From assembly GCA_944377165.1 (NCBI GenBank), contig CALWEJ010000004.1:8369-72368 (forward strand): a stretch of DNA of 64,000 nt. The letters run 5' to 3'. The stretch is from an uncultured Clostridia bacterium. Its GTDB lineage: Bacteria > Bacillota > Clostridia > Christensenellales > UBA1242. Numbering within the stretch: position 1 is the first letter of the stretch; every line of letters starts with the position of its first letter. Positions 57,467 through 58,926 of the stretch are shown one piece after another. The translations under genes were made by a program, and so were the position numbers. Under the pieces are notes generated by a model, which searched no databases, was not told where the DNA came from, and worked only from the letters and a program-made list of their open reading frames with translations.

Positions 57467-57509
57467 GCGACGGAGTTAAGGGTATAGTATTACCCCTTAA
57501 CTCCGTCGC
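57467..57509 (+). other. Putative rolling-circle origin: 16-bp stem, 11-nt loop containing TAGTATTAC
   Basis: gcgacggagttaaggg-taTAGTATTAC-cccttaactccgtcgc. The nonanucleotide is at 57485-57493, and the structure lies 107 nt upstream of the Rep start. Confidence 0.8.
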
Positions 57510-57597
57510 ACTGTCGCACTTATCTATTTTATAGATAAAAATTGAAGGTAAAAAGTGTCGCATTTAGTGTCGCACCCCTTAAAAATTAAGTGTCGCA
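57503..57597 (+). repeat. Iterons (G/C)(T/C)GTCGCA x5 flanking the origin stem-loop on the Rep side
   Basis: ccgtcgca 57503-10, ctgtcgca 57511-18, gtgtcgca 57555-62, gtgtcgca 57567-74, gtgtcgca 57590-97. Confidence 0.75.
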
Positions 57598-57615
57598 CAA
57601 CAAAATGGGGGAGAT

Positions 57616-58926
57616 ATGTCAGAAGAAAATGAGTTTATTCCGAGTTCTCAAGCAAGACGATATGTGTTTACGATAAATAATCCATTTTTTGAAGGTGAAG
57701 ATATAGATATTAATAGTATTGATTTACCTATTAAAGAAGATTATTATTCAAAATCTGCATTACTACAATTAGAAGAAAGTGAATGTTTTGACTTTCATTA
57801 CATTAAGATTGAAGTAGAAAAAGAAGATTTTGAAAAAGAAGAAATAATTATAAAAAGACCATATTTTAAAGATTGGGACAGTGTAGAAAAATACTTTGAG
57901 GGATTAGAGCATAGAAGATATTGTGTTTATCAGTATGAACAGGGAGAAAACGGTACAAAGCATATTCAAGGAGCAATATTCTTTACGATAGCAAAACGTT
58001 TTCGAACGATGAAAGATTATTTACCTATTGCTCATATAGAAAAGGCAAAAGGTTCGAATAGTCAAGTCAGAGAATATTGTACCAAAAGTGAAACACGAAT
58101 AAAAGACCCCGTAGAGATAGGTGAATTCGCTGAAGAAAAAGCAAGGTCAGATTATAAAGATTTCACTGAACTAGTACAATCTGGAATATCTAAAATTGAA
58201 TTGTCAAAGTTATATCCTATGTTGTATGTACGTGAACGAAATAAAATAGACGATATTCGAGCAGATATATATGAAGAATATTTTGAAAAATATAGAAGTG
58301 TTGACGTGACATACATATATGGTCCATCTGGAACTGGTAAGACAACATATATATCAAGATTATATAGTCCAAAGGAAGCATTTGACGTGACTAATTATGA
58401 TAATTCAATGTTTACTAATTATAAATATCAAGACGTATTAATTATGGACGAATTCTATGGCGGACTAAAAGTACAGACATTAAACTTAATGTTAGGATTT
58501 AAGCCTTTTGATATGCGTGGACTAGGTTGTGCAAAACCTGCTTGCTATCATCACGTGTTTATAATATCTAATTATTCGTTGCACGAAATTATTAAAAAGC
58601 TATGCGGTGAAGATTATAGATTATATAAGACAATAGATAGACGAATACATAAAATAATACATTTTACAGCACTTAATAAATATGAGATTGAACGCGATAG
58701 TGAGTGGGAAGACATAACAGATAAGCGAGATTTAGAATTAGGACTAACAAAGCAAGTAAAGACAACTTGGGAATTTGATAGTCAAGGCAATAAAGTAATT
58801 TTATTTGATAGATATTCAGGAGTACCAGAGTTGCAAAAAGTGGAAGAAAATGTATTTAAATTTGCTGATAATTCTAGTGAAGAAAATCAAATGTTAATAG
58901 ATGAAAATGGGGATTTGAAATTTTAG
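57616..58926 (+). CDS. rep: Rolling-circle replication initiator, HUH endonuclease plus SF3 helicase (CRESS/circovirus-type Rep)
   Basis: Motif I YVFTINNP, motif II KHIQGAIFF and motif III REYCTKSE. Walker A YGPSGTGKTT, Walker B VLIMDEF and motif C FIISN. RBS GGGGGAG. Confidence 0.85.
   Translation: MSEENEFIPSSQARRYVFTINNPFFEGEDIDINSIDLPIKEDYYSKSALLQLEESECFDFHYIKIEVEKEDFEKEEIIIKRPYFKDWDSVEKYFEGLEHRRYCVYQYEQGENGTKHIQGAIFFTIAKRFRTMKDYLPIAHIEKAKGSNSQVREYCTKSETRIKDPVEIGEFAEEKARSDYKDFTELVQSGISKIELSKLYPMLYVRERNKIDDIRADIYEEYFEKYRSVDVTYIYGPSGTGKTTYISRLYSPKEAFDVTNYDNSMFTNYKYQDVLIMDEFYGGLKVQTLNLMLGFKPFDMRGLGCAKPACYHHVFIISNYSLHEIIKKLCGEDYRLYKTIDRRIHKIIHFTALNKYEIERDSEWEDITDKRDLELGLTKQVKTTWEFDSQGNKVILFDRYSGVPELQKVEENVFKFADNSSEENQMLIDENGDLKF

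Follow-up and report, generated by a model that had tools for sequence, protein, structure and literature searches.

How does a replication origin of the kind used by circoviruses, together with a matching Rep gene, come to lie in the chromosome of a gut bacterium, and what sort of element carries it there? The question is raised by a 64,000-nucleotide stretch of contig CALWEJ010000004.1 (assembly GCA_944377165.1), referred to here as the window, in which an original prediction made from the letters alone had described a stem-loop, iterons and a Rep of the circular Rep-encoding single-stranded (CRESS) DNA virus type. The host is an uncultured, low-GC, gut Clostridia-type bacterium. We conclude that the locus as a whole is best explained as a 13.65-kb temperate element that is integrated in tRNA-Leu(UAA), carries a rolling-circle replication module and is most likely a filamentous prophage, a reading to which we assign a probability of roughly 0.78.

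The leading account of circovirus and nanovirus replication genes derives them from bacterial plasmid-like elements, and has been built on trees of Rep proteins alone. Bacterial Reps that join nuclease and helicase in the CRESS architecture have been sorted into nine groups, pCRESS1 to pCRESS9 (Kazlauskas et al. 2019, PMC6668415), and CRESS-DNA viruses were argued to derive from such elements (PMC6668415). Most pCRESS elements are integrated in tRNA genes by tyrosine recombinases, pCRESS2 being typical of Clostridia; they are termed plasmids, none with known viral structural proteins (PMC6668415). The notion of a bridge between bacterial elements and eukaryotic CRESS viruses, which the original prediction had raised for this locus, is consequently not new, having been proposed already for the pCRESS groups (PMC6668415); the replication module on which it was founded is supported by the results below.

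A circovirus-type origin lies beside the rep gene

The stem, loop and nonamer of the original prediction were recovered exactly where it had placed them. A perfect 16-bp stem, in which the left arm at 57467 to 57482 (GCGACGGAGTTAAGGG) pairs with the right arm at 57494 to 57509 (CCCTTAACTCCGTCGC), encloses an 11-nt loop, TATAGTATTAC, with the nonamer TAGTATTAC at 57485 to 57493. Folded as single-stranded DNA (ssDNA), this hairpin reaches −19.7 kcal/mol (z = −8.1 versus shuffles). The nonamer by itself is not improbable in the AT-rich window, where two matches were found versus 1.1 expected; it is significant because it is placed in the loop and is kept in relatives. The nick is presumably made at TAGTATT/AC, a position that we take over from circovirus and geminivirus biochemistry.

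The five iterons of the form (G/C)(T/C)GTCGCA, the first lying over the right stem arm, were likewise found as described. Their core, GTCGCA, starts at 57505, 57513, 57557, 57569 and 57592 on the plus strand, and the 8-mers read CCGTCGCA, CTGTCGCA and then GTGTCGCA three times. When judged by the rate of the hexamer in the rest of the window, five copies within 93 nt on one strand have a P value of about 1e-11, or about 1e-8 when corrected for all positions. Both features of a CRESS-type origin that we looked for were present, namely a stem-loop with the loop nonamer NANTATTAC beside rep and replicon-specific iterated sequences flanking the stem. The iterons are the predicted binding sequences of Rep.

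The Rep protein combines a CRESS-type nuclease and helicase with a distinctive insert

The rep start codon lies 107 nt past the end of the stem, and the motifs of its 436-aa product stand in CRESS order, as had been claimed. The nuclease motifs are FTINN (motif I; T19, N21), HIQG (motif II; H116, Q118) and YCTK (motif III; Y154, K157), and those of the superfamily 3 (SF3) helicase are Walker A GPSGTGKT (K242), Walker B IMDEF (D278-E279), motif C IISN (N319) and an arginine finger, R343. Pfam searches, which the original prediction had named as a check, assigned Viral_Rep at 1.7e-15 (residues 100 to 157) and RNA_helicase at 2.5e-6 (28.4 bits versus a cutoff of 21.5), both above the curated cut-offs. 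A second check concerned the catalytic residues: T19, E108, H116, Q118, Y154, K157, K242 and R343 proved invariant across 42 homologues, and D278-E279 and N319 are nearly invariant in the Rep alignments.

An AlphaFold 2 model, built on 42 sequences, had a mean predicted local distance difference test (pLDDT) score of 87.9. Its top Foldseek matches were 9PQQ, 7LAR and 8XMS (TMt 0.82 to 0.85) and 6H8O (TMt 0.89), so that the fold best resembles Vientovirus Rep and the Rep helicase of porcine circovirus 2 (PCV2; TM 0.82 to 0.85) and the nuclease of nanovirus M-Rep (TM 0.89). It also resembles circovirus nuclease domains solved in complex with an ssDNA oligonucleotide of the cleavage site, and PCV2 Rep was matched by plain sequence search at 1.1e-15. 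The protein thus has the nuclease motifs in order with a catalytic tyrosine, the SF3 helicase motifs and the circovirus/nanovirus fold that define a CRESS-type Rep. Taken with the stem-loop and iterons, it very probably forms the rolling-circle replication module of the element, as the original prediction had read it: a CRESS-type rolling-circle origin with an HUH-SF3 Rep in an integrase-bearing element.

The insert of about 70 aa that had been noted between Rep motifs I and II is real by alignment. It is kept in the aligned full-length family members (about 390 to 510 aa) and is absent from ordinary CRESS Reps of about 290 aa and from inovirus Reps, and on these alignments it appears specific to the Rep family of the window. 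The model predicts it to be ordered, with a helix at residues 46 to 55, a beta-hairpin at 58-68/74-84 and a second helix at 87 to 95. It occupies the beta1-beta2 position, the commonest insertion site in the endonuclease domains of CRESS and pCRESS Reps, where insertions are usually much shorter (PMC8780604). The family has in addition a C-terminal beta domain at about residues 350 to 400.

A search of 5.8 billion proteins returned 119 Rep homologues, about 114 of them 300 to 510 aa long and nearly all unnamed metagenomic sequences. The best pairwise scores against the published groups were with pCRESS2 (39% and 33% identity; E = 6e-52 and 5e-37), followed by pCRESS3 including p4M (27%; 2e-19) and pCRESS1 (23%; 3e-8). 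We provisionally place the Rep in a bacterial, pCRESS2-related lineage of circovirus-like HUH-SF3 initiators.

The origin is conserved in related loci through compensatory change

Homologous elements were expected by the original prediction to keep the stem-loop and nonamer, and they do. In relatives with the upstream region available, to which this comparison refers, a stem-loop with nonamer precedes the start of Rep by 122 to 166 nt (by 58 nt in the locus labeled L037), and the stem-loop is kept in 11 related loci with compensatory changes in the stem. The loop nonamer is TAGTATTAC in L001, L003, L004, L006, L007, L010, L012, L034 and L035, and also in L002, where the stem has one mismatch. 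L005 has the variant AAGTATTAC (positions 9869 to 9877) and L037 the variant TATTATTAC (9943 to 9951); the former is that of PCV2 and the latter is nanovirus-like, so that the variants mirror those of eukaryotic viruses. In L038, the region upstream of rep yielded no stem-loop with xxxTATTAC.

Covariation of the stem was evaluated in an alignment of nine family members, in which 10 of 18 pairs have changed on both sides and 96.5% of the cells pair. None of 500 shuffles was as good, and sliding the partner by 1 to 3 columns lowered pairing to 33 to 47%. The stem of L010 (2950 to 2992) carries a symmetrical 2-bp insertion, one in each arm.

The iterons vary in concert within each genome. The core is GTCGCA in the window, L005, L007 and L034, GTCACA in L004 and GTAACA in L006, and further genome-specific iterons are GTAATATT (L010), TGTCGA (L002) and TGTAAA (L003). 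Their common layout places two copies at the stem and three further on, with a small palindrome between the two groups. When Reps that share GTCGCA were compared with the closer Rep of L004 (GTCACA), five scattered positions tracked the iteron (Q12, I30, L52, F123 and K393), a pattern that is inconsistent with L006.

The module belongs to an integrated temperate element

The element spans positions 46004 to 59657 (13,654 bp) and contains about 21 genes. Its ends are marked by an exact 59-bp direct repeat (46004 to 46062 and 59599 to 59657) that corresponds to the 3' part of tRNA-Leu(UAA), and site-specific integration of the tyrosine-recombinase type, with attachment (att) repeats in a tRNA gene, is thereby present as in pCRESS2. 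Just inside each end lies a pair of GGGGTCAAA repeats, of which just two further copies occur elsewhere in the 64 kb; these are probably arm-binding sites of the integrase or an excisionase. Apart from the lysogeny module on the minus strand, the genes share the strand of the nick site. GC content is 0.27 in the element and 0.31 in the rest of the window.

Around the element lie ordinary chromosomal genes, those for phosphoketolase, RNase J, FeoB, LepA, DnaK and FakA, bearing out the claim that the module sits inside a bacterial chromosome. In independent assemblies the element was found at the same site with the same chromosomal neighbors.

Relatives include an excised circle

Thirty loci encoding relatives of the Rep were found in species-representative genomes, the best 60% identical. 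They come mostly from metagenome-assembled genomes of uncultured Clostridia and other Bacillota, and the samples named include rabbit, roe deer, human and termite. The clade seems to be widespread in animal-gut Clostridia, and none of the relatives of about 12 to 14 kb was found in the virus collections searched (IMG/VR and GenBank phage records). The conserved core has the order 129-aa protein, protein of about 80 aa, Zot-like ATPase, protein of about 117 aa, origin and Rep, and is preceded by two small proteins with a single transmembrane segment and three large, variable, N-terminally anchored proteins. L004, whose Rep is 70% identical, has the same downstream genes (DUF4364 and its neighbors) and also lies beside tRNA-Leu(UAA).

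L007 (Logan SRR32129108; Rep 63% identical) is a contig of 14,141 bp with a 30-nt terminal overlap, which we take as the mark of a circular sequence in a k=31 assembly (Logan). In it, attP links two small open reading frames (ORFs) downstream of Rep to the integrase gene, a junction also present in L008 and L009; the attP contains the tRNA 3' end GGATTCAAATCCCTCACTCTCCGCCA with GAGTAGAATTTGAGTAGAAT repeats on both sides. Because L007 is circular and carries the attP junction, elements of this family exist as excised circles.

Three other observations concern more distant Reps. L038 (8754 to 12133) is a minimal element consisting of an integrase, a Rep of 33 to 40% identity and two ORFs. In L037 (1 to 11955), a Rep within the same range of identity lies beside tailed-phage-like genes (Phage_tail_2, Peptidase_S74 and a LexA-like repressor). 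The IMG/VR contigs L014, L019 and L024 are 7 to 8 kb long, above the typical CRESS genome size, encode CRESS-type Reps of 26 to 31% identity and may represent further inoviruses with a CRESS-type Rep.

A divergent Zot-like ATPase points to a probable filamentous prophage

The gene order upstream of the origin includes a 301-aa P-loop ATPase whose direct matches are weak: the Zot PHROG at 1e-4, the only morphogenesis-related PHROG match in the element, and tblastn matches to the Zot genes of two inovirus records. It had no Pfam match above threshold and no sequence match in the PDB, and hhalign gave a probability of 45%. Its AlphaFold model (predicted template modeling score 0.73) has as best PDB fold the N-terminal domain of Zot, 2R2A (E = 1.7e-7), which outranks viral packaging ATPases in the PDB search; among viral models, the top named matches are inovirus Zot. 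A family profile collected 245 relatives in an exhaustive search of 1.84 billion representatives, and among the best 150 of these, 94 are assigned to Zot by Pfam (best 3e-12), with at most 7 for any other family. Fold and transitive profile evidence together suggest a divergent but specific member of the Zot/pI family.

Two features by which inoviruses are recognized can be compared with these data. A pI/Zot-like morphogenesis ATPase (PMC6813254) is present in the form of this divergent protein. Short proteins of 30 to 90 aa with a single transmembrane segment are represented by two ORFs (67 and 61 aa) conserved in position, in which the basic C-terminus is absent. Homologs of these small proteins are co-positioned in L004, L007/L008, L034 and L035, with the conserved motif FTGTWIF...FGWNxGI. 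Neither a classic coat protein nor a capsid homologue, jelly-roll included, was detected among the element proteins. Because a Zot/pI ATPase lies upstream of the origin together with single-transmembrane and large anchored proteins, the element is most likely a filamentous prophage; a filamentous, inovirus-like virion is somewhat favored. What had been called a membrane-protein-rich element can accordingly be described more closely: its integrase stands, and it is better regarded as encoding a Zot/pI ATPase and as probably a filamentous-type prophage.

Several results weigh against this interpretation. The ATPase model also resembles the uncharacterized ATPase of plasmavirus L2, an Acholeplasma phage (E = 8.6e-5). 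A pI-like protein of inoviruses carries one or two transmembrane domains (PMC6813254). By a crude Kyte-Doolittle window, no transmembrane segment was found in 6 of 7 ATPase family members, and the window protein has one borderline segment (residues 71 to 89; score 1.64 versus a cut-off of 1.6); the Zots of three bajarodino viruses, inoviruses discussed below, likewise have none. The conserved 53- to 61-aa membrane protein lacks the basic C-terminus seen in bajarodino coat proteins. Among the element proteins, PHROG matches with E < 1e-5 were restricted to the accessory 92-aa Spo0A_C-like ORF; 50,697 phage records contained no match to the element DNA or to its 409-aa and 129-aa proteins, and a pattern-based scan of IMG/VR gave no close Rep relative (best 31% identity). 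As regards the reading of the locus as a whole, the exact window copy, present in several samples, was seen only integrated at one site or ending at att. The Rep itself has DE in Walker B (D278-E279), not the EE typical of pCRESS2, with N319 of motif C present; bajarodino Reps carry EE. Finally, no sigma-70-type promoter consensus, which would have suggested autoregulation, was found upstream of rep in the iteron region.

The alternative that survives best, which we consider unlikely, is nonviral: a rolling-circle plasmid in integrated form, or an integrative mobilizable element. The excised circle would then be replicated by Rep, which might double as a relaxase; segregation or translocation of DNA would fall to the Zot/FtsK-like ATPase, and adhesion or surface exclusion to the large anchored proteins. 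This would agree with the classing of pCRESS1 to pCRESS3 as integrated plasmids (PMC6668415), with the missing canonical coat protein, with phage-record and PHROG matches limited to Rep, a weak Zot and the accessory Spo0A_C-like ORF, and with the occurrence of distant Rep family members in minimal integrase-Rep elements such as L038. However, the ATPase is closest to Zot/pI by both fold and profile, and within annotated phage records homologous Reps occur solely in complete circular inoviruses with the order Zot, origin, Rep. Moreover, searches of the element proteins revealed no genes for relaxase accessory functions, a coupling protein or type IV secretion, and the swapping of a surface-protein cassette between identical flanks, described below, suits a receptor-binding protein.

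A temperate virus of another morphotype, either pleomorphic and membrane-vesicle-like as in plasmaviruses and pleolipoviruses or new, with a Zot-related ATPase to package the Rep-made genome and no filamentous coat, seems decidedly improbable. The many membrane-anchored proteins, the want of a coat protein with basic C-terminus, the very basic 76-aa protein adjoining the ATPase gene and the matches of the ATPase model to L2 and other virus packaging ATPases would fit it; yet the L2 match is clearly outranked by those to Zot proteins, and no homology was seen to plasmavirus or pleolipovirus structural proteins. We also know of no precedent for budding through a Gram-positive wall.

That the locus has decayed into an immobile remnant, with an origin and rep that have fallen out of use, is very improbable. 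The integrated state of every window copy, the 92-aa ORF that is frameshifted in some strains and the gene remnant at 54829 to 54972 are set against core ORFs that are all intact, att repeats identical over 59 bp, a perfect stem and a full set of catalytic residues, as well as copies that are 98 to 99.8% identical across samples save for one swapped cassette and a relative that exists as a circle. Eukaryotic CRESS virus sequence joined on by misassembly or contamination, an idea prompted by the circovirus type of the nonamer and Rep motifs, has a negligible probability and is excluded because the same locus, junctions and chromosomal neighbors included, recurs in independent assemblies; the GC content of 0.27 moreover fits the 0.31 of the host, att sites, integrase and bacterial-type genes surround the module, and the roughly 114 full-length homologs come largely from Clostridia contexts.

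A bolder version of the preferred reading of a temperate prophage is that the window element and its relatives of about 12 to 14 kb (Rep identity at least 46%) constitute an unrecognized family of temperate ssDNA viruses of uncultured gut Clostridia, with a virion that would be unlike the classical inovirus filament given the missing basic-tailed coat protein, an origin of circovirus/nanovirus design and a Rep insert that recognizes double-stranded origin DNA. We put this forward tentatively and regard it as doubtful in its entirety; the role assigned to the insert, in particular, is hypothetical.

A proposed replication cycle

Nicking, an ssDNA stage and a virion are inferred, and the cycle may be pictured as follows. 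The element would excise to form a circle, and Rep would bind the five GTCGCA iterons beside the stem, with the TAGTATTAC loop exposed as ssDNA. Tyr154, with a metal site formed by His116, Gln118 and Glu108, would cut TAGTATT/AC and stay on the 5' end, while the SF3 helicase domain would unwind the DNA and a host polymerase extend the 3'-OH. After one round, Rep would cut again and ligate, and a circular plus strand would be released. This strand, which carries all of the morphogenesis genes, would be either converted to double-stranded DNA, perhaps by way of the tandem hairpins at 57275 to 57366, or exported.

These hairpins fold as ssDNA to −25.1 kcal/mol (z = −8.2) on the plus strand versus −18.9 on the minus strand, and every imperfect pair in them is a G.T on the plus strand. 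Their arms resemble DnaA boxes: TGTGGATAA is a perfect box, and TTATCCACT and TTATCCATA are each one base off. L004 and L005 have equivalent hairpins in this position, and because the strand asymmetry is negligible there, it lends little weight to a single-strand origin. The structure may be a complementary-strand origin or a DnaA-dependent priming site.

Other features of the element and its surroundings

The features of the element are collected in Table 1, in order of position.

TABLE 1 Coordinates of the features of the integrated element within the 64,000-nt window
Feature	Position	Strand	Evidence or remark
attL, 59-bp direct repeat	46004..46062		Copy of the tRNA-Leu(UAA) 3' part
Paired arm-type repeats GGGGTCAAA (two) beside the integrase gene	46146..46166	+	Starts 46146, 46158; putative arm sites
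Tyrosine integrase, 349 aa	46162..47211	-	Pfam Phage_integrase 6.8e-20; same position in relatives
Two ORFs (72 and 253 aa), lysogeny module	47289..48281	-	No significant family match
HTH_3 (Cro/CI-type) regulator, putative repressor	48281..48664	-	Pfam HTH_3 2.4e-15; position kept in relatives
Five small ORFs (90, 100, 65, 123 and 73 aa)	48816..50188	+	No family match; 100-aa and 65-aa ORFs kept in L004
Two small single-transmembrane proteins (67 and 61 aa), candidate virion/membrane proteins	50240..50653	+	One N-terminal transmembrane segment each (hydropathy)
Three large N-terminally anchored proteins (409, 592 and 374 aa), putative adsorption/surface proteins	50646..54793	+	Transmembrane or signal anchor in each
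47-aa ORF, remnant of an alternative allele of the third large gene	54829..54972	+	Its two ends match those of the L069 allele (387 aa)
ORFs of 129 aa and 76 aa (very basic), conserved core	55215..55843	+	129-aa ORF in L004, L005, L006; 76-aa ORF in L006 only
Divergent Zot/pI-family P-loop ATPase, 301 aa	55944..56849	+	Walker A GLEGFGKT; fold and profile evidence
117-aa ORF between ATPase gene and origin	56858..57211	+	BLASTP in L004, L005, L006; aligned counterparts in L007, L034, L035
Two tandem hairpins with DnaA-box-like arms	57275..57366	+	Candidate complementary-strand (single-strand) origin
Origin stem-loop	57467..57509	+	16-bp stem, nonamer TAGTATTAC, covarying stem in relatives; predicted nick TAGTATT/AC
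Five iterons (G/C)(T/C)GTCGCA	57503..57598	+	2 + 3 layout around palindrome TTATCTATTTTATAGATAA (57520-57538); layout recurs in relatives
Rep, HUH(HUQ) endonuclease, ~70-aa insert, SF3 helicase, C-terminal beta domain	57616..58926	+	436 aa; Pfam, alignments, AlphaFold 2 model, folds
Accessory ORFs: Spo0A C-terminal DNA-binding domain (92 aa) and 85 aa	58936..59475	+	Pfam Spo0A_C 9.7e-19; not found in relatives
Paired arm-type repeats GGGGTCAAA (two), right end	59500..59520	+	Starts 59500, 59512; mirror the left pair
tRNA-Leu(UAA)	59599..59686	-	ARAGORN; 3' 59 nt (59599-59657) = attR

Within the lysogeny module, the 253-aa ORF (47520 to 48281, minus strand) has a cysteine-rich N-terminus with a double CxxC of zinc-ribbon-like appearance and no family match. 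The 592-aa protein contains a Flg_new (Listeria-Bacteroides repeat) domain. The third large protein (53669 to 54972 in the window; 6203 to 7366 in L069) is swapped as a cassette between copies that are 98 to 99.8% identical elsewhere: the 374-aa and 387-aa alleles have their first 36 N-terminal residues in common and are 37% identical thereafter. The 47-aa ORF that follows corresponds in its N-terminal 27 aa to one end of the 387-aa allele of L069 and in its C-terminal 24 aa to the other. This swap looks like diversification of host range or of a surface protein.

For the core ORFs of 129 and 76 aa, no PDB, Pfam, PHROG or phage-record match was obtained, and PDB profile searches with the 129-aa and 117-aa proteins returned noise only, with nothing from Pfam or PHROGs. 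The 92-aa ORF (58936 to 59214) is frameshifted in some strains at a run of A (8 A versus 7 A in L069), and its Spo0A domain could interfere with sporulation control in the host. The iteron TGTCGCA is one base off a 0A box, and the Spo0A-domain protein was considered as an iteron binder and rejected: because 0A boxes are not enriched (23 versus 23.5 expected) and relatives with the same iteron lack the gene, we regard it as accessory. Outside the element, a chromosomal 837-aa protein (12351 to 14864) matches TIGR04095 weakly (3.9e-14, far below the cut-off) and may be a defense gene with a restriction enzyme domain of a DNA phosphorothioation system, unrelated to the element.

Comparison with known systems

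The published group that the element most resembles is pCRESS2, with which it has in common the HUH plus SF3 Rep, integration in a tRNA gene by a tyrosine recombinase, direct repeats, a size of about 8 to 14 kb, Clostridia hosts and an ATPase gene. The window Rep differs in its ordered insert of about 70 aa, its C-terminal beta domain of about 90 aa, a DE Walker B and an HUQ motif II; the acidic pair of Walker B is typically EE in pCRESS2 (PMC6668415 supplementary note). pCRESS1 to pCRESS3 have "FtsK-like" ATPases, single-stranded DNA-binding proteins and surface-exclusion proteins in common (PMC6668415 and supplementary note), and a table of the same paper records a Zot/pI match in a Hungatella pCRESS2 element (PMC6668415). 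The present results suggest that some published pCRESS2-type "integrated plasmids" are prophages with a Zot-family assembly ATPase. Origins are not described in the main text or Supplementary Note 1 of the pCRESS publication, whose main text makes no mention of a nonanucleotide (PMC6668415), whereas that of the window is defined and conserved.

CRESS-type Reps have also been met with in inoviruses. An S3H domain "typical of eukaryotic ssDNA viruses" has been recorded in one inovirus Rep family, iPF_00203 (Roux et al. 2019, PMC6813254), and in the genomes ctbe30 and ctbc27 the inovirus genes for Zot, RstB and coat occur together with a CRESS Rep (Tisza et al. 2020, PMC7000223). The bajarodino viruses (PQ006121, PQ006124, PQ006184 and others), complete circular inovirus genomes of 5 to 10 kb from rodent feces, are the only annotated genomes with homologous Reps (28 to 34% identity). 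They have in common with the window element the order Zot, origin, Rep, the loop nonamer TAGTATTAC and flanking iterons, which in virus 56 are also GTCGCA. They differ in their size of 5 to 10 kb, in Reps of about 330 aa without the insert and with an HUH motif II, in a Zot that matches Pfam directly and in classic coat proteins with basic C-termini, whereas the window ATPase is far more divergent and no coat protein is evident; of the element proteins, Rep alone is detectable in them by BLASTP.

The life style proposed for the element would be that of the classical temperate inoviruses, such as CTXphi and Ff: rolling-circle replication from a plus-strand nick, a circular genome of about 5 to 15 kb with all morphogenesis genes on that strand and the lysogeny module opposite, and a pI/Zot ATPase. 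Their initiators (pII, RstA and Rep_trans types) have no helicase domain and use other nick sites (PMC6668415), and unlike the window element they have a pI with a transmembrane segment and recognizable coat proteins. The concept itself is already published, pCRESS elements having been described in 2019 and inoviruses with a CRESS-type Rep in 2019 to 2020. In the open-access literature we found no paper linking TAGTATTAC to inoviruses, prophages or pCRESS, nor the insert-bearing Rep family or the clade of 12 to 14 kb, and the origin architecture and this clade appear to be undescribed.

In porcine circoviruses, the loop of the origin stem has the nonamer (T/A)AGTATTAC, and the arm nearer to Rep is adjoined by short direct repeats. 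Porcine circovirus 1 (PCV1) carries TAGTATTAC and PCV2 carries AAGTATTAC, with cleavage between positions 7 and 8. The likeness of the window module to Circoviridae and Nanoviridae (PCV1/PCV2 and faba bean necrotic yellows virus) extends to the HUQ motif II, the single catalytic tyrosine in YxxK, the SF3 domain with Walker A and B, the motif C asparagine and an arginine finger, and the fold of Rep (7LAR, 8XMS, 6H8O, 7KII and 6WDZ). In contrast to circoviruses, the element has a bacterial host, 13.65 kb and about 21 genes instead of about 2 kb, integration by a tyrosine recombinase, a stem of 16 bp, five iterons of 7 to 8 nt and a Rep with an insert and an extra C-terminal domain. As a whole it does not fit Cressdnaviricota (about 2 to 6 kb, capsid gene, eukaryotic host), with which the replication module alone is common. 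The cis-acting half of that module, the TAGTATTAC loop with its stem and adjacent iterons, is thus common to bacterial integrated elements, inoviruses and eukaryotic CRESS viruses. Because this origin is found in all three groups, the evolutionary link previously drawn from Rep trees is strengthened, and the element offers a concrete bacterial system for testing how CRESS-type Reps recognize and open their origins.

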